From the NCBI GenBank assembly GCA_965645245.1, contig OZ287080.1:1550001-1614000 (forward strand): a stretch of 64,000 bases of DNA. The letters are read 5' to 3'. Made by a program: the position numbers and the translations under genes. This DNA is from Massalongia carnosa (Eukaryota). Below the pieces are notes generated by a model. The model searched no databases. It was not told the DNA's origin and worked only from the letters and a program-made list of their open reading frames with translations. Positions 10,144 through 62,800 of the stretch are shown here, piece after piece; position 1 is the stretch's first letter, and the number at the start of each line of letters is the position of its first letter.

Positions 10144-11179
10144 ATGAACGGGGTTCGAACAAGGAAGCAGATCCCAAAAACGGCCAAAGCCACAGAATCG
10201 AAGCCTGCGCTCAATGGCGACGCAAATACCACAGCAAACGGCTATATAAGAACGGGTGGACTGGCTACAAAAAGAACAGAACCATCGGAGAATATCTTTC
10301 TTTTCTACCCAAATATCATCGGTATTTAGATCTCGAGAGTCGTCCCATTCCGCCGTGCTGCGTGCTGACCAGATTAGGTTACTCCCGTATCGTTCTTGCC
10401 ATTGCCTCGCTGTACTATATGCCCCTTCACCCAAGAACATGTTCACTCCTCTACAGCATTTCATGCCTGCTCGATGCACTTGACGGGGTAGCTGCCCGGT
10501 ACTTTCACCAATCTACTCACTTCGGTGCTGTATTGGACATGGTTACGGACCGGTGCACAACCGCCTGTTTGTTGGTGTTCTTGAGCTCCGCCTGGCCTCG
10601 ATGGGCGCTTTTGTTCCAGGGCCTGATTAGCTTAGACTTGGCAAGCCATTACATGCATATGTATGCAACGTTGACCATGGCGGGATCGGGGCAGAGTCAT
10701 AAAAAGGTGGATCAGAGCAGGAGCCGGATCTTGCACCTTTATTACAACAACAAGGTAATCTATCCAAGATCTATCCTTGGAGCTGGCTCTGACCACTTCC
10801 CGAGAACGTCTTGTTCGTATTCTGCGCTTTTAACGAGCTCTTCTTCATCGCCCTTTACCTCCTCTCCTTTTCCTCCCCAATCCTATCACCGTCGCTGCTT
10901 CCGGTAGACAACACCCCGGGATCATCTGCGCAGCCAGGTAGTCCCTCGCTCCCGTCGTCTACCTTCTTCGCGGCTCCCGGAAGTGCATGGGCCATGGAGC
11001 TAGCCCGGGCGAACAAGATGGACAGTTTCTGGCCTTGGGTCATCGCCGGTGTCTCGTTCCCTGTCATGGCTGGCAAGCAGTTTCTGAATGTGGTGCAATT
11101 AGTCAAGGCTAGCAAGTGGCTAGCAGAAGGTGACCTCGAAATGAGACGCGCTCAATGCCTCCCGAAGAAGAAGAGCTGA
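10144..11179 (+). CDS. PIS1: CDP-diacylglycerol-inositol 3-phosphatidyltransferase (phosphatidylinositol synthase), 3 exons
   Basis: ENIFLFYPNIIG|YSRIVLA; CDP-alcohol phosphotransferase motif DALDGVAARYFHQSTHFGAVLDMVTD; introns about 10322-10377 and 10755-10805. Confidence 0.93.
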
Positions 11180-11939
11180 TGGGATCGGGCGGATGTGTGC
11201 TAGGTGTGTGTTGCGTGAACGCCGGTTGGCCATCTACCTTTCCCTTCGGCGCCTTTAATATAGTCTAGTTTTTCCTAGTATTTTGCGAAGCGCGGTGTTG
11301 ATGAATTACCCAGTCATTGACTTGGAACGTGTAATAGGTAGGTATTTGGATCGCTTGGGGGGTGGGGGGTGTTCTACGTTCATATAGGTATCTGGGCAGC
11401 GTCGTCAGCACGGCCGGGGGGGGTTTTGCATAACGTTACATACCTTCGTTTTCTGTGCTTTCATATCTCCTCCCAAGGAATCGAGGGGGGATTTTTTTTA
11501 AGGTATTCTTTTTCTTCATGTTATTATCTAAAGTTCTGGAAACGATCAGCTTGCCACCTTCTCCACTCTTATGATACAATGGAAAAGCTTGATAGTAAAC
11601 GATCTTGCACTCGAGAGCAATGCAGTTAAATATCATTTCCTAAACAGTGCTCCTGATATTCTGAGCTCTTTTCACCGCTGAATATCAGAACTCGATACAG
11701 ATAAGACTCGAGACGGACGAGCCTACACCATCGGTCCTCCTCCTTCTACACCATCGGTCCTCACCACGGAGACGCCAAAGGCCTCACCGTGGGGCGACCG
11801 TCAAACATAGATTTGCTCCTATCTCTTCGCATCAAAACAATGCTAATTTAACGCGTTCACACGCGTCGCAGACGTACGTACGGAAGAGGATACGAAGGCC
11901 AACCGCCGGGGGGTAGAATGCGCGCGTCCCTGCACCATG

Positions 11940-12659
11940 CTTCTAAGGGTTCAAGTCCCTTCATGCAGTCATCAGCTGGAAGAAGATGTGGACCAAAGGA
12001 GCCGCATCATCCCCCACCCGGGCACAGTCGACACGCGTTCTAGCTCCTGAGAGTTCAAGTCTCCCCATGCAGTCATCAGCTGGGATCAACAGAACGCGTA
12101 AAGGCACCGGGGCGAATGCTGTCACCTCAAGAAAACTCCATCTCGGAGCAGAATAACAATATCCCATTTAATAGGCCCGGCCTGTTAAATAAAATCGAGG
12201 AAAACAAAGTCACAAAACACATAGTCATCAATCACACGTTGTACAAAGCACACAGTCACAAAGCACACAGTCACAAACATACAGTCACAAACACACAGTC
12301 ACAAAACACACAGTCACAAAAAACACAGTCACAAACCAATAACACGTCCCTGTGAAGGGGGTTCTGCGGGGGCTCGTTAAGACAGATCTGCACCCCGTTA
12401 ATATCGGAGTACATATTTTTAGAGGTTCAAGTCCTTTCTAGCAGTCATCAGCTGAAAATAATGTATTTTGACACGGGCATGGTGTGGATTTGACACGGGT
12501 AGACCTCGATGGATCACAAAACGAATGAAAAGAGTTCAGCGGAACTTCGTTAATATTGTTCTCGAAGACCTCGTTAATAAGATTTTCATAGACCTCGTTA
12601 ACAACGTTCGGTCATACTCTTAAAGGTTCAAGTCCTTTCATGCAGTCATCGGCTGAGAG
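11940..12659 (+). ncRNA. Four dispersed copies of a ~43-nt structured RNA motif (P1 stem, 5-bp stem with TTCAAGT loop, 16-nt conserved bulge)
   Basis: Copies at 11940-11982, 12045-12085, 12415-12459 and 12617-12659; loop invariant, bulge nearly invariant, stems differ in sequence but stay paired. Confidence 0.65.
12205..12335 (+). repeat. Minisatellite (ACACAGTCACAAA-like, 13-16-bp units) inside the retroelement
   Basis: About 7-8 imperfect tandem copies of CACAGTCACAAA. Confidence 0.85.
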
Positions 12660-13020
12660 CTAAAGACGTACGACACGGGTCAGCTATGTCTATCACACGG
12701 GTCTCCTTCGTCTACAACACGGAGCCCTCCGGCTGAAAGAAATAAAACATATAGACACATAGTGTAGGGTCACACCCTACACGATACAAGGGATTTGGGT
12801 TATGAAAACCATCCGATTGATGGCTACCGTGAGCAACACGGCCCGAACCGGAGTCGTACCGGGGATGGTGGAGGCAACCTAGTCATCAAATAGGACACCC
12901 TTGGGACAAGAAGAGGGCAATATACGAGGAACCCGTTAATTGATAACAGTCTAGGCCCTGAGCTAATAGACGAATTTCAAACGAGCACCCCTCCGAGTTG
13001 TCCTCGACTTGTTTTGGTTA

Positions 13021-13390
13021 GTAGGGACGGAAATCGATACTATACTGCCTGGTCAGGAGCATAGCTGTCGAAATCCCTGCGAGACATGGTCGGTTCATAA
13101 ACGGGAGACCTTTATGAATAACGCGAAGTGGGCGTAAAAAACCCGTGAGGCGTGGTATGCAATGGCGGCCACCGTACGGAGACCGTCTGCATAGCCCGAG
13201 AGGACAGTATGCGCATGTCGGTGTATATAGAGCAGGGAATGTCTATCTCGCTCGTAACGAGACCCCGTCGGTTCGCCGGCGCATGGGCTACGGCTAGACT
13301 CGCCCTTGATATATGCTTAAGGAGTAAACTGGGTTTGACCTGGGCGAAAGGGACGTCGTTCACCCCAATCGTAGAATTCATCAATAGTCT
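13021..13390 (+). ncRNA. Large multi-hairpin structured block inside the retroelement
   Basis: GTAGGGA/TCCCTGC long hairpin (13021-13080); TTCATAAA..GG-GAGA-CC..TTTATGAA (13094-13118); CGTCGG-TTCG-CCGGCG (13266-13281); TAGCCC/GGGCTA long-range pair; G-U wobbles favour the + strand. Confidence 0.5.
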
Positions 13391-13481
13391 TGGGCCGTAA
13401 AACGCACCAGTGAGATGAACGAAAACTGGGATAGAGACTTCACGAAGGAGATGTCAACTCTATTTTATCATTCTTAGTCTG

Positions 13482-14585
13482 ATTGAACCAAAAACGGACA
13501 TAAGAGTACTGGGCCTACAAATCGACACAAAACTAAAATGGGGAGCTCATATACGGAAGACGCAGGAAAAGATGACGTCGCAGTCGCTAGCGCTCACAAA
13601 AATCTCGGCATCCACCTGGGGAGCATCCTTCGCAAAGGCCCGGCAGGTCTACACCTCCGTCGTCCGCCCGGCAATGACATACGGAAGCGCCGTGTGGCAC
13701 ACGCCCAAGGAAATCAAGAAAAACAAGGCCACGATGTCCAAACTCAGTGTCATGCAGAACAAATGCCTACGCACTGTGGCAGGAGCGTTTAAAGCAACAC
13801 CCGTCGAGGTTCTCGAAGCGGAAACTTTCATCGCCCCTATGGAGCTACACTTGGATCATCTGCAGATGAAAGCAAGATACCGCCTACGGGCCTCAGGGCA
13901 AGCGAAACTGATCACCACTGCCTGCAGCACAATAGCGAACAAGCTACGAGGCAAGGCAGGACGCAAAAGAATACAACGCCCCACCCTAGGAGATTTAAAA
14001 CACGAATGGGCCAGCAAGATGCTAAACAACGAAGCCCCAGCCGCAATACCGCCGCCGCCCCGACCCTGGTCAGGACCCGACCCTGTCCGTCTCGAGAAAT
14101 ACATCACGGCACGCCGAATTATCGGAAAGCACGCAAAGACCATTACAGTACGAATCAAGGAGCGTTGGGAGACCAGGTGGAAGGCGTATCAGGACCGCGT
14201 TCCCTACCCAACAGAGGCACAGCTCGGACCACTCAACAGAACTAGATTGAAGATTCATGACAACTTGATGAAGGCGGAAAGCGCGCTAACCACGCAAATC
14301 CGCACTGAGAAAATAGGTTTGGCAAACTTCCTGTTCAATCGTCGGGTTCCGGGAGCTATGACTCCAGCTTGCTCGTGTGGCTGGCAGAAACAGACTGCCA
14401 AACACATCATATTACACTGCAGACTAATCGAAGGCAGATATGAGCTGCTCAGACAATTGGGCACCCACGACTACCGGACGATTACGCGTTCGTCGAAAAT
14501 GCTGAAAAAGCTAACTGCATGGATAATAAAAGCAAACTTGTTAACACAGTTCTCACTAGCATCGCAAATGTTATACGAGATATAA
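13482..14585 (+). CDS. 5'-truncated LINE ORF2: end of RT (thumb) plus C-terminal CCHC zinc finger; no endonuclease or RT catalytic core
   Basis: IRVLGLQIDTKLKW...STWGASFAKARQVYTSVVRPAMTYGSAVW...QNKCLRTVAGAFKATP...LEAET and CSCGWQKQTAKHIILHC, typical of fungal Tad-clade LINEs. Confidence 0.85.
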   Translation: MEPKTDIRVLGLQIDTKLKWGAHIRKTQEKMTSQSLALTKISASTWGASFAKARQVYTSVVRPAMTYGSAVWHTPKEIKKNKATMSKLSVMQNKCLRTVAGAFKATPVEVLEAETFIAPMELHLDHLQMKARYRLRASGQAKLITTACSTIANKLRGKAGRKRIQRPTLGDLKHEWASKMLNNEAPAAIPPPPRPWSGPDPVRLEKYITARRIIGKHAKTITVRIKERWETRWKAYQDRVPYPTEAQLGPLNRTRLKIHDNLMKAESALTTQIRTEKIGLANFLFNRRVPGAMTPACSCGWQKQTAKHIILHCRLIEGRYELLRQLGTHDYRTITRSSKMLKKLTAWIIKANLLTQFSLASQMLYEI

Positions 14586-15384
14586 CTTCTCATTTTCGTC
14601 AAGGATTCTAAAGAAAAACGATCACAGAGAGCAGCCTGTTGCCAGCGAGGCTCCGGAGGTAGTGCGTAGTCTACGGGGTTTTTATTCCCAAGAAGGGTTT
14701 TCCTTGTATGATAAACATAGACAGCCCGCATGGGCCGGCCTTCGGCCGGTGTCATATCGGAATAAGAATAAATCAATCAATCAATCAATCAATCTAAAGT
14801 TCTGCATGCATACATACTTACCGACCCTCCACATAAAATACCCACCTACCTAACTCACCACCCCTACGGCAAACCCTCCCCCCCAACCAACAAACCAACT
14901 AGCCATTCATCCATCCTTCCGTCTTCCCCCCCCCCCTCCCCTAACTAAACTACCTACATAACATATCTCAAACAACCAAGCCAGGCCAAAGCTTACAGAG
15001 GTGGGACGAACTGCTGCAAAGCCTAAGGGGGGGGGGGCTGCGAACTACCGAATATTCGAACGAACGAATAAATGAATGAAAAGATGGGGAAAAGGGGAAG
15101 AGTGTTTCGGAATGGAGTGGAAAATAGGGGTATACTGAATATGAGCCGGGCCGTGCTTTCTGTTCTTTTTCATTACTATTCAATTCATTTATTCATCCGT
15201 TCGTGCGTGCGTGCGTGCAAGGGGGAAGGGAAGAGGAAAAAGGAAAGGAGAGAAGGGAGCGGTAGACGCGTAGAGTATGTATATCATATGTGTATTTACA
15301 CTAAACCTATTACTCAACTAAACACCACCACCACCTCCTCTTTTTCTCTCCACTTCCCTTCCTCCCCCGCCTTAAACCAATCCC

Positions 15385-17019
15385 CTAAGTCCTTCTCCCC
15401 CTCGGATCTGCCGCTTCCCGTTTCCTCCACTCCCTCCTCTCCCTCGTCCTCCACCCACCGCCCCCACCCTCGCTCCGGCGCTCCCAACCCCCAAGCCTGA
15501 TGACAAGACACGTGGCATTGTCGCCCCCCTCGCCCACCTCCTCGGCGTAGGCGACCACATCCCCGGCCGCCCCCGCGGGCGTCTTGGCCTCCTTGACCAC
15601 GTCCGCAATCTCCTGGTCGCTCACGCATCCACTCACCCCGTCGCTCACCAGCACGAGGAAGCTATACTCCCCCGGTGCCAGCTCTATGCGACGCACCTCG
15701 GGCTCCGCGCTCACACCCACGCGCTTGGAGCCCATGTCGCCGAAGCTGCGCGTGTTGGCCAGGCCGCCGAGCCGCTCCTCGCCGAAGCTGTCGGTCACGA
15801 AGCTGGCGCCCCAGCGGCGGAGGCGTGCCGTTTCCACGGGCGCGCTGGGGTGGTGGTCCGTGGTTAAAGGGACGGCAAGGCCATCCGAAGCCCGGCAGAG
15901 GAGGATACGCGTGTCGCCGCAGTGAGCGGTCAGCAGCGTTGATGGCGCGGAGGGGTGCCAAAACGGAGTTGGGGTCGGGGTGGAGATGAGGGCAATGGAG
16001 GCGGTGGAGCCGCCGACAAAGGGCTTTTGCGGGGGCTGATGTACTTCTGTTGCGTTCAGCGGGGCGTCAGCGAGGACGTGATCTGTGGCGAGGAGGGAGA
16101 GGCGCAGTTGGGTGGTGATGAAGTGGAGGTCCGCGGCCAGGAAGGCGTGGGTGAGGATTGTGGGCGAGGACGGTGGAGAGGCGGGATTGGTGAAGGCCGG
16201 GGGGTTGAAGCGGCGGAAGTAACCGCCTACTGTGTTTCGCCAGGATTTGAGGAGTGTGGATTGCAAGGTAGAGGCAACTTGAGTCGAGGTTAAATGTGGA
16301 GAGAATCCGTCGCCTGGCGGGGGTTTTGGCTGGTCGATGGAGGCACCTGTAAACGCTACATCAAACGCATTGGTCCTCCCATTTAGGCTCGATTCGAGGC
16401 CGTATTGCCGCGCCGCATCCTCAATGTACTCGTGTAGTCTCTCCCTTAGGAAGCTGCTGCACTCGCTGCCGCCGTGCCCGTCAAAGACGCCAAAGTAAAA
16501 GACCTGTGGGTCTCCACTCGCGCTTTCAGCGGCTGTAATCTCACCATTGCCCTGCCCCTGCTGTTCTTGCTGGCCATGCTCGTACGCTTTCAACGGGCTG
16601 CTGGCTGGAGCCCGTGTGAGATTGAGGGGCGCACGCTTGGCGAAGGCGGGGAGCTCGATCACGCCGGCTTGGTAGGTGTCTTCGTTGTAAGGACGGGTGC
16701 CGCGCGAAACGGCCACGCCAAAATGATGTTTAGCGCTGCGGAGTGGGATCCGCACCACCGTCGTGTCGCGCGTTACGCCGAGTAGCGGAGCGGGGGAAGG
16801 GCCACCTCGCTGGGAGGACGAGGAATTCGAGGTGTGAGGTTTGGACGCCGAGCGGGGAAGGTGGTGGAGGGGGCCGATAGAGGAGCGGGAGTCGGGATGC
16901 AGTGACGACGAAGGAAGGTGGGTTACAAAGTAATCGTGGAACGGCCGGCGGGGGAGGAGGGGTTTGGTGCGGAAGGAGGCGATGCGGTATCCCGTTCTCG
17001 GTGACATCGAGCTACACAT
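15385..17019 (-). CDS. PTC6: PP2C-family protein phosphatase, mitochondrial PTC6/AUP1-like
   Basis: SRGTRPYNED, FGVFDGHGG, GSTAS, AHCGDTR, LANTRSFGD, VSDGVS, DNAT motifs; Arg/Ser-rich N-terminus resembling a targeting peptide. Confidence 0.85.
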   Translation of the reverse strand: MCSSMSPRTGYRIASFRTKPLLPRRPFHDYFVTHLPSSSLHPDSRSSIGPLHHLPRSASKPHTSNSSSSQRGGPSPAPLLGVTRDTTVVRIPLRSAKHHFGVAVSRGTRPYNEDTYQAGVIELPAFAKRAPLNLTRAPASSPLKAYEHGQQEQQGQGNGEITAAESASGDPQVFYFGVFDGHGGSECSSFLRERLHEYIEDAARQYGLESSLNGRTNAFDVAFTGASIDQPKPPPGDGFSPHLTSTQVASTLQSTLLKSWRNTVGGYFRRFNPPAFTNPASPPSSPTILTHAFLAADLHFITTQLRLSLLATDHVLADAPLNATEVHQPPQKPFVGGSTASIALISTPTPTPFWHPSAPSTLLTAHCGDTRILLCRASDGLAVPLTTDHHPSAPVETARLRRWGASFVTDSFGEERLGGLANTRSFGDMGSKRVGVSAEPEVRRIELAPGEYSFLVLVSDGVSGCVSDQEIADVVKEAKTPAGAAGDVVAYAEEVGEGGDNATCLVIRLGGWERRSEGGGGGWRTRERREWRKREAADPRGRRT

Positions 17020-52928: not shown

Positions 52929-53092
52929 CATGCATTGCATGATTGTCATAGTTAAGGCTGAAAAGCTTAGGAAGCCTGGTCACCCTTCAAATTCCTTCGT
53001 ACTCACGGGGCATGCATTGCATGATTGTCATAGTTAAGGCTGAAAAGCTTAGGAAGCCTGGTCACCCTTCAAATTCCTTCGTACTCACGGGG
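52929..53092. repeat. Perfect 82-bp tandem duplication
   Basis: 52929-53010 is identical to 53011-53092; each unit starts with CAT and another CAT follows. Confidence 0.95.
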
Positions 53093-53672
53093 CATCAATC
53101 GCCTCCAATTCTTTGATGTTGAAGTATCCGTATGTAGTACGGATACTTTGAAACTTCCTGGTAGTTCAGCATCCAACAAGACAGACAGAAAAACGGCAAA
53201 CTTCATTAATCGGGGACCGGATTGAGGGATGAAAAAGATGCAGTTACCATCAACGGCATTTCCCGTTCCAGGTTCCCCATTCCCCGTTCCCCGCAATGCT
53301 TCGCTCTGCTTATGGTTTAGTGATTATCCTCTTTGGGTTAGATAGACGCGTGGGATCCTAGCTCGGTAAGCCCCGTCAAGGGTTTCCCACCATTCATTAG
53401 ACTGAGACCGAGTTTGCCGGCAGGTCATACCATCTTCGGAGACCCAGATGATGATAGTCCCAGCACCCGTTTGATCTTGCCTCAGTACTTCAGACATGCG
53501 TGGCTCTACGAGCCGTCTAAGCCCTTCCGGGATAGCCTAATTTCGTTAAGCTTCTTCGGACTAGCGTTTTAACTGATTAACGTGGCTGCTATAGCACGTC
53601 TGAGCGCAAAACTCAATGATACGGTCAGCTATTCGTAATAAATCATGTATTATTGCGATTTTTCGACATTTT

Positions 53673-61115: not shown

Positions 61116-62800
61116 TCACAAATCAAAATCCACAGTGACGTTCCTGCTCGTTATCCATGGGTTACCCGCACGTTTAGGCACAGTCCACTCCTCAACCTGC
61201 GGGCCGTTTCCGGAGTCAAACATGATGTACACATTTCCGTCCCCTGTCACTCTATCGCTCATAGCTGCTAGAGAGAGATATGTCGTGTTCGTCTTCTGAA
61301 GAGGCTTGATCTCGGACGTGTGATCTACGAAGCCCGTCGTGCAATTCCACGCGCTCAAAACTAGAGAGCTGCGGTCCGGAACTGCGAAAATAATTAGGTT
61401 GGTCAAGGGTGTATTGTGCGTGCACTCCGGCAATGTGTTAGTTTTATACAAAGGCTGGTTGTCTTGCGCAACGACTGCGAGAGGGGATCGCGGTTCGACG
61501 GTTAGGCCGGTTGCTAATTTACGGTGTTAGAGGACTAAAGGTGACCATAGGGATCGAGACTGCGCTAGGTATTTACCAGATTCAGAGGTCAGGGAAACGA
61601 CGTTCTTGGGATCAAGATCAGTGTCACTGATTGTGTATTCATGCTGCCGCAAATTCTTGCCGTCATCAACTGTGTATAGCATGAGGTGCTTTCCGCTTCG
61701 ATAGCTCACGAGGGACATAGCGAACGTCGACCCTTTAGGATGTGAGAATCCGAAATTATTAGCAACCCACGGCTTGCTTGTCGTGCTGTTGCTGGTATAG
61801 CGTCCTTGAGTAAGGCCATCGACGAAATTTTCTTCCTGGAACAAAACAACCAGTTCTTGTGATACGTTTTGAATGTTCTGATTCCAGTAGGCAGTGAGAA
61901 AAGTAGAATTACCACCGGTATAGAGTCCGCTGAAATTATCATCTTCCCAGGCTTGGGAATCATTAGAGGGAGCCTGACGCTCGAAGAGCTCATCGTTAGT
62001 TGACATATAGTACACATTCTTGGCCTATGGATTGTTTATTAGCCAATAGCAGAGAATAAGAGATATGCGATACACACCAATGAGTAATTATAGCTAGCAT
62101 GGGGGTATCCGGCCGCTGCTGCGATAGGTGTACCGGGCTTGACAGCATTGCTGATCGCATTAACCTTCCATGCAGCACCGAAAGCAGTGCTGTTATCCCA
62201 AGCAGATTCTCGGATCTTGTCGCTGTTGTCTTGGTAATAGAGTCTTTTGTGCAATGTGCCATTGAGATCAGTCCATTGCATGGCTGCCAGGCCTGTATTC
62301 GCGTAATGTACTCGAGTCGTTGTTGGTGCTTGAGGAGCTGTTGAAGATGGAATATTTGTGGGAACAGTAGCATTCTGTTTTCTATTACGCACAGCGATAG
62401 TTCCACCGATACCACCACCTACTACACCTGCTATTAGGAGGACGAGTACCACGGGTAACAGTACAAAGAACGTCTTGCTCCTCAGGCCAAAGATTCTGCG
62501 CTCCTCTGTAGGACGTGATAATTCCGATTCCGATTCCACGTCATGTGCATCGACAACGACTGCTTGCTTGCCCACATCGTTGAAGCTGATGATCTTTTCC
62601 GATTGCGAGTCATATGCATCGACAACGACTGCTTGTTTGCCAACATCGTTGTAGCTGATGATCTTTTCATCCTTGGGATCTTGACCCACGATAGGAGCAG
62701 CCTTGCCATCATTCTCCAGGCAACAGTTGTAGTTTACCTCCAGAGTACTATATTTTGTGTTTCCTGGTGCCGGCACCAACAATGGCATCGAGCCTGCCAT
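61116..62800 (-). CDS. Type II membrane-anchored fungal fucose-specific-lectin-like beta-propeller protein, 3 exons
   Basis: RRIFGLR + TM helix + GGGIGG; blades such as TGLAAMQW..RLYYQDNSDKIRESAW..GTPIAA; introns about 62077-62025 and 61576-61514. Confidence 0.7.

Follow-up and report, generated by a model that had tools for sequence, protein, structure and literature searches.

A non-coding retroelement of Massalongia carnosa that appears to capture its 3' tail from LINE RNAs under RNA guidance

A 64,000-nucleotide stretch of the Massalongia carnosa genome (assembly GCA_965645245.1, contig OZ287080.1, positions 1,550,001 to 1,614,000; hereafter the window, with positions counted from its first letter) carries an insertion in which non-coding DNA runs directly into the 3' end of a long interspersed nuclear element (LINE). 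How did the two come to share one insertion, and was their union a single event or the product of a family? A preliminary description of the locus had offered both answers: a reverse transcriptase (RT) template switch that joined a non-coding RNA or short interspersed nuclear element (SINE) to a LINE, or a non-autonomous parasite family. The second was supported, as the non-coding part, here called E, belongs to a 76-copy family with homologues in other organisms; the one-off chimera was not. We put at roughly 85% the probability that E, a non-coding element without its own 3' tail, propagates itself at the expense of LINEs by capturing a tail under RNA guidance, the nature of the catalyst left aside.

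Insertion, family and parentage of E

The insertion consists of 1.94 kb of non-coding DNA followed by the last 1.31 kb of an active LINE, with the joint at 13477|13478; the LINE had earlier been taken to start near 13482. One 13-bp target-site duplication (TSD), ATCTAAAGTTCTG, brackets the whole, and its 3' copy directly adjoins the (AATC)n tail, so the unit was inserted in one piece by LINE machinery, as had been proposed. Also as described, the first open reading frame (ORF1), the endonuclease and the RT core are all absent from the unit, and a stop-free ORF2 frame is present (13419-14585); it aligns with residues 785-1153 of an APE-RT ORF2 that is intact at another place in the genome (52 Mb in 25 contigs). 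Base-by-base comparison of the LINE part with four other copies showed no difference from three of them, and its identity to the 19 other fetched copies is 98.9-100%; in those copies the corresponding segment closes an intact endonuclease-RT ORF2 that has no RNase H. Both halves of the chimera are 100% identical to other loci, and older copies carry a mild, CpA-biased excess of C>T changes (4.0% per site versus 1.5-2.0%), in agreement with the recent insertion first suggested. The donor LINE at the window junction has no microhomology with the end of E. Four contig sets from sequencing runs included no contig that spans an empty site; they showed the identical 3' boundary of the element and one more junction, starting CCC.

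A DNA search with the 5' part gave 124 candidates, 40 of which were scored, at 92-100% identity. The family was found by a 24-nt pattern located 7 nt before the element end (76 matches, all fetched, against 0 for the control); this pattern is blind to copies that end earlier, as 3 of the 40 scored hits do. All 76 copies stop at the same last base, a G in 75, and share no sequence beyond it. Sense LINE sequence follows in 74; of the other two, L099 runs into a SINE-like repeat and L089 is an 80-nt fragment. No solo copy of E was found among the 76. The tails fall into about nine LINE groups, including an RNase H-bearing clade only 22-35% identical in ORF2. The window junction itself does not recur; what recurs, on many different LINE tails, is the 5' part with its invariant end. 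Tail-adjacent TSDs of 12-16 nt flank 16 further copies, the stolen tail measures 0.6-5.9 kb in copies with clear TSDs, and the LINE 5' part is missing in 66 of 67 copies tested. A search of the same genome with the exact core pattern revealed no diverged second family (45 matches, all but one of them listed copies).

The junctions are also selective on the LINE side. Site counts use the 64 junctions whose donor is at least 90% identical, leaving out 12, and these reduce to 53 distinct sites, with A at -1 in 35, C at +1, +2 and +3 in 39, 42 and 28, and G at +4 in 27. At +1 to +3 the favoured replacement of C is T, which is U in RNA (p = 0.009, 0.005 and 0.018), as expected from G-U pairing. The bases after the junction are templated by the LINE, since the majority donor differs within +1 to +4 at only 6 of 63 junctions. 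The base before the cut is G at just 6 of the 53 sites, so there is no microhomology with the element end TTAG. A CCCG microhomology supplied by the acceptor was ruled out because these bases come from the LINE, with the single exception of L056, in which a C is present that is missing from 25 donors.

New copies arise from chimeric genomic copies. This is clearest for L095, which has a 16-nt TSD and a 590-nt tail. Three copies start within the upstream flank of L095, L098 with its last 39 nt, L108 with its last 27 and L110 with its last 21, the L095 TSD included in each, and the TSDs of L098 (15 nt) and L108 (14 nt) themselves sit exactly outside this shared piece. All three group in the clade of L095, and their tails come from the other LINE clade with different junction words. 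Daughter copies match the global site consensus rather than the junction word of the parent. A second set comprises seven copies, among them the window copy, that carry 122-523 nt of flank from locus L064, none with the tail family of L064. The window copy is identical to L064 over 1937 nt, of which 122 nt are L064 flank, and differs in its tail; a 12-nt match ties the end of the L064 tail to a point within the apparent leader of the element. Judged by sequence, the window copy would be a daughter with parental flank and a new LINE tail, and the preliminary description, which took the whole 5' part as the element, included 122 nt (11541-11662) carried over from the parent locus. No ORF of useful length spans the reconstructed empty site of L064. 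Several E lineages have near-zero terminal branches. Copies that have a junction in common were probably copied whole or duplicated together with their flanks, so tail replacement is frequent and not obligatory.

Several copies have peculiarities of their own. Three sets (L058/L069/L075, L049/L093 and L052/L057) have 52-450 nt of 5' flank in common and different junctions, which makes further parent loci likely. L095 (G000:C1, ~3.28-3.29 Mb) lies just upstream of an ORF that by eye resembles the start of a DNA transposase, and the promoter of this ORF may drive the daughters. The 5' end of many copies (L051, L052, L077, L085, L087, L092, L104 and others) is a run of 2-26 tandem 23-mers whose phase is the same from copy to copy; several show a further G outside the TSD, such as a capped start or the addition of a G would leave. 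L112 shows a short inversion at its 5' end: the ~60 nt upstream of the element repeat window ~12430-12490 in reverse complement. In L099, E runs at A|CCTC into a SINE-like, non-coding repeat whose A-rich tail is of LINE type (0-930 nt past the junction), and a second LINE 3' end follows, a tripartite unit resembling WEIRD-MgSINE-MGL of Magnaporthe grisea. In L059 (G000:C8, ~1590.4-1595.8 kb), alone among the 67 tested, the 12-nt TSD of the chimera lies within a LINE copy at the site homologous to its own junction, which may reflect homology-guided homing or near-complete reverse splicing.

A conserved RNA core, its closing helix and a candidate guide

A pattern built from a T-arm-like module that occurs four times in E matched 39 stretches of metagenome contigs, representing 38 distinct loci, some of them overlapping. 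About 28 of the 38 hold further blocks 67-88% identical to window 12760-13477. Downstream LINE ORF matches, with differing start positions, were found in 20 homologue loci; L136 and L145 had no LINE match, and L130 and L146 look like chance matches. The core was aligned from the window and 11 chosen homologues, near-duplicates and partial ones left out, at a mean column identity of 63%. RNAalifold returned 157 pairs, 79 of them compensatory. In a trimmed model of 142 pairs plus one pseudoknot, 96% of cells are paired and 74 of the 142 pairs show double changes; slid controls reach 36-45% and none of 500 shuffles the observed pairing, a count that is no probability, as the structure was derived from the same alignment of about six lineages. 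The preliminary description's structured RNA thus stands for 12764-13477, where covariation strongly supports a fold; single-sequence folding does not bear it out (z -0.47, not significant, for 12950-13490). Rfam gave chance matches or none for the window region, the longest copy and eight homologue loci, and an exact-match search with the core pattern gave 0 matches each in viral contigs and prokaryote genomes.

Upstream of the core, E has four T-arm/B-box-like modules, candidates for a tRNA-like head, whose stem covaries, with 36-39 of 39 distinct motifs paired per position. ARAGORN called no tRNA. The modules outside the core (window 11949-12655 and homologues; T-arm plus CAG-loop-CTG hairpin, ACACRGG, YCGTTAA) are conserved and vary in number, and may possibly be binding sites for ORF1/ORF2 or TFIIIC. 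Reading the minus strand of the repeated module as a hammerhead was rejected by eye, as the hammerhead core is broken in three of four window copies.

The end of E is marked by a helix. The 10 nt after an invariant GTAAA pair with the last 10 nt of the element (8 of 10 positions in the window, 8-10 of 10 in 19 homologues). L135, L136, L138 and L166 show compensatory changes. The homologues have one extra G after this helix. Their donors, where at least 84% identical, read A|G at six of six distinct junctions, all from one lineage and with two donors of 71-72% not counted; the extra G is therefore the LINE's, and one rule covers both groups: the final base pair of the helix marks where the element stops, and position -1 of the target is A. 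Without the LINE-templated G, homologues end in G, or in A in three G>A-mutated copies. L145 and L157 have an additional hairpin of ~55 nt that separates the last hairpin of the core from the strand of the terminal helix, and the junction rule is unaffected.

A second short segment, outside the modelled helices, matches the target. It reads TGGG-TTA in the window and ..GC-TTA in homologues, complementary to UAA|CCC in this genome and to A|GC in the homologues, so that GG faces CC here and GC faces GC there. In this genome TGGGTTA is the best of 1808 7-mers for pairing with the LINE sites. Pairing is significant at each position from -3 to +4, and at least five of the seven positions are paired at 43 of 53 sites versus 16% of background. 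When 16 homologue junctions were compared with their own guides, 51 of 64 positions paired (null mean 25, maximum 40 in 20000 draws), and the guide column ranks first of 638 across lineages. In L161 the guide reads CGCC, for which sites starting with GGCG would be expected. The window segment also reads as a permutation of a telomere repeat (GGGTTA; GGCTTA in homologues), probably a coincidence of letters.

Chimeric parents, tail replacement at one exact base and a guide that covaries with its site are more than a plain template switch between a non-coding RNA or SINE and a LINE can account for.

Models of tail capture

How might a tail be exchanged so precisely? In the scheme that we favor, the E transcript would be cut exactly after its last G, the position being set by the terminal helix. 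The guide, whose pairing and covariation are described above, would hold the LINE RNA across UAA|CCC(G/A), and the 3' end of E would be joined to the downstream LINE fragment. LINE ORF2 would then prime on the stolen tail and integrate the chimera, often 5'-truncated, a step to which the TSDs and family-specific tails attest. We infer that the cutting and joining occur on RNA. That the RNA itself catalyses them seems to us, from its sequence and fold, somewhat the better bet. The likeliest catalyst would be a highly diverged group I-type ribozyme carrying out the first step of reverse splicing, with the 3'-OH of the terminal G attacking the guide-bound phosphodiester; release from the old tail would come about by the forward reaction or by hydrolysis.

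Group I reverse splicing, as outlined by Hausner et al. (2014, PMC3984707), relies on a G at the end of the intron, adjacent to a closing helix, and on a single guide that spans the target bond, and intron mobility by reverse splicing plus reverse transcription is there said to have no direct experimental support. On that outline E shares the terminal G beside a closing helix, the internal guide on both sides of the bond (P1 + P10) and target words of 4-6 nt. The order of core helices can, on our assumption, be mapped on P2.1-P3-P4/5/6-P7-P3'-P8-P7'-P9.0-P9.x, with GACAG before the P3-like strand and UAAGGAG-UAAAC after the P8-like helix presumably in the corresponding places. E differs in that it has no 5' splice site or 5' exon, is never an intron in a gene, would perform half of the reaction only and has a foreign RNA as its target.

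Several observations weigh against this scheme. The data on which the guide was tested are those in which it had first been spotted by eye; the switch of the guide from GC to GG amounts to one evolutionary event; a 7-mer at 13330 scores nearly as well in this genome (471 versus 476), and across lineages column 132 is a close runner-up (5.52 versus 5.91). Position +4 favors G (27 of 53) over A (11), which the guide U does not predict. The guide is unchanged in eight copies with off-consensus words, and we found no guide mutation that explains the A at +1 in one clade. The assignment of L064 as a parent is weaker than that of L095, as it depends on a 12-nt TSD that partly overlaps the tail, and random 12-mers match in 60 of 15000 cases. 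The equivalent of P7, the conserved group I helix that has the G-binding site and takes part in the P3-P7 pseudoknot, pairs at just 2-4 of 5 positions and does not covary, while its positions and invariant G-C and U-A pairs fit. Extra hairpins occupy the places of the short joiners of group I introns, Rfam yields no match to a group I or group II model even at E-values of up to 5-10, and the -1 pair is A-U in E where the group I norm is U-G. E thus seems to work like a half reverse-splicing group I ribozyme, yet its weak P7 and its never being an intron keep us from filing it as a group I intron. A group II intron found no support: there was no Rfam match, and E ends in G rather than AY, with a DVI-like hairpin ending CCCUAC 13-15 nt before the end. 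More tentatively, at a little under even confidence, E may represent a widespread class of fungal mobile ribozymes of group I intron descent that are no longer introns and that trans-splice their 3' G onto LINE RNAs where the guide directs it; WEIRD could be another member with a different guide.

WEIRD is known from the MINE retroelement of M. grisea, in which it is fused to a 5'-truncated MGL LINE (Gogvadze et al. 2007, PMC2104539). As that report describes it, WEIRD is 1.1 kb long, occurs in one species with no homologues reported, uses one LINE family with a GCC motif upstream of the junction, and was interpreted as a housekeeping RNA captured by template switching. The likeness to E, taken from this description, is considerable: a fixed-end non-coding 5' part and variable-length LINE 3' fragments within one TSD, the lack of a solo copy, junctions that are site-specific, have a short motif tolerant of C/U and show no microhomology, and occasional SINE capture (here L099). 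In contrast to WEIRD as published, E uses two distant LINE clades; its sites are A-rich upstream with a CC(C/T)G motif downstream, and lack the upstream GCC motif; and it has chimeric parents, a covarying core in other organisms and a covarying guide. By analogy, MINE is likely an unrecognised precedent.

SINEs are tRNA-derived elements with a LINE-like, fixed tail. E resembles them in being non-autonomous and non-coding, in its B-box-like T-arm motifs and in its mobilisation by LINE ORF2, and differs in having no tail and taking a new one from whichever LINE is active.

Among the alternatives, the one that survives best, though we consider it unlikely, is a structure-guided RT template switch, in which guide-bound E RNA stalls ORF2 and the cDNA jumps onto the boundary of E, the fold serving as a scaffold and no RNA being joined. 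Template switching is the model given for MINE in the published account (Gogvadze et al. 2007, PMC2104539). It does without novel chemistry and accounts equally well for guide pairing at the site. However, it requires either that E be cut at its end beforehand or that the internal jump fall on precisely the same base in every one of the 76 copies, the junctions show neither microhomology nor untemplated bases, pairing on both sides of the cut suits a scissile bond better than an RT pause, and the ~710-nt conserved multi-helix core is left unexplained.

Slightly less probable still is a protein-assisted cut and paste of RNA, in which E, or a host nuclease that it recruits, would cut both RNAs and leave a cyclic phosphate and a 5'-OH for the host tRNA ligase to seal. 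Its model is the U6/L1 chimeric pseudogenes, for which RNA joining, by RtcB ligation, is described as preceding reverse transcription and retrotransposition (Moldovan et al. 2019, PMC6789731). There too, by that description, an exact RNA 3' end is joined to variably truncated LINE RNA and retrotransposed with a TSD, and the exact end of the 5' part and the clean junctions are found likewise here. Yet U6 is a host gene, its chimeras are dead ends and guide-directed site choice does not feature in the description, whereas the parents of E are chimeric copies and its sites are chosen by pairing; moreover, E matched no small self-cleaving ribozyme family.

That E derives from a host RNA of one locus, or from a spliceosomal intron, absent from the assembly, and that the chimeras are dead-end template switches, is very improbable. 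It is the view published for WEIRD, of which no solo copy was found (Gogvadze et al. 2007, PMC2104539), and the pyrimidine-rich ...TTAG end of E resembles a 3' splice site. The spliceosomal reading was rejected, as homologues end ..CTTG and not YAG, and the host-RNA view is largely refuted by the L095 family, whose daughters carry the flanks and TSDs of an identified chimeric locus; the near-zero terminal branches in several E lineages and the want of a solo copy among the 76 also count against it. Least probable of all is a DNA-level insertion (Helitron-like or other) of E into LINEs followed by truncating retrotransposition: L059 has donor-matching upstream LINE sequence just 5' of E, but the LINE 5' part is missing in the other 66 copies tested, the L059 TSD is ordinary and tail-adjacent, the G-U tolerance and covarying helices point to RNA, and no assigned junction has an antisense LINE partner.

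We found no published description of the E RNA, its guide or its tail swapping in a literature of which most subscription papers were beyond reach, and repeat databases may file E as an unclassified repeat. The available text of Li and Breaker (2017, PMC5640933) mentions no retrotransposon-linked motif.

Layout of the window and biological meaning

The features of the insertion are collected in the table. It lies between convergent host genes, a CDP-alcohol phosphatidyltransferase that ends at 11179 and a PP2C gene that ends at 15385, and tblastn over the window found no LINE ORF2 besides that of the insertion. The genes and the type of LINE suggest a filamentous fungus. Elsewhere the window holds two tandem duplications of two copies each, one of 82 nt (52929-53095) and one of 69 nt (62528-62668).

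Table. Features of the chimeric insertion, in window coordinates (UTR, untranslated region).
Feature	Position	Strand	Remark
5' TSD copy, 13 bp	11526..11538	+	
GA, two bases matching neither TSD nor parent locus; probably untemplated	11539..11540	+	CC at same place in other copies
122 nt of 5' flank of putative parent locus L064 (G000:C9), ending in L064's own 12-nt TSD copy (11651-11662)	11541..11662	+	
Non-coding element E as in parent locus; invariant 3' end ...CATTCTTAG	11663..13477	+	
Two 23-nt repeats; up to ~26 at start of other copies, many in same phase; likely the usual 5' end	11723..11762	+	
T-arm/B-box-like module 1: 5-bp stem, TTCAAGT loop, then GCAGTCATCAGCTG	11949..11978	+	
T-arm/B-box-like module 2	12053..12082	+	
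15-nt tandem array, 8.9 copies	12204..12335	+	
T-arm/B-box-like module 3	12425..12454	+	
T-arm/B-box-like module 4	12626..12655	+	
Conserved structured core, ~710 nt, 24 modelled helices; ribozyme candidate	12764..13477	+	
Candidate internal guide TGGGTTA, complementary to LINE -3..+4 around cut	12796..12802	+	
Terminal helix, 5' strand; partner is the last 10 nt of the element (13468-13477)	13329..13338	+	
Junction	13477..13478	+	donor LINE CCAA|TCTG
3' 1314 nt of active APE-RT LINE, family A: ORF2 C-terminal 369 codons to 14585, 3' UTR, (AATC)n tail 14771-14791	13478..14791	+	
3' TSD copy	14792..14804	+	

These data give a testable identity to an architecture unexplained since the report of MINE and WEIRD. 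E would be a non-autonomous retroelement without a tail of its own, for which a LINE RNA is chosen by base pairing and its 3' end taken each generation. Since the tail is new each generation, the parasite can move between unrelated LINE families. Even if proteins do the joining, a ~710-nt conserved RNA that is absent from Rfam and shows guide-target covariation is new. If the RNA is the catalyst, E would be a new large class of ribozyme whose 7-nt guide can be reprogrammed, and it would provide a natural system in which to study the long-proposed spread of introns by reverse splicing and reverse transcription. Should the more specific reading as a mobile ribozyme be true, E would be a trans-splicing ribozyme found in nature and an extant example of mobility by that route; each LINE message would be destroyed as its tail is taken, and the reverse reaction would possibly recombine LINE RNAs with each other. 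For the genome that harbors it, E may restrain LINEs, one LINE message being cut per event, and it moves host flanks around the genome.

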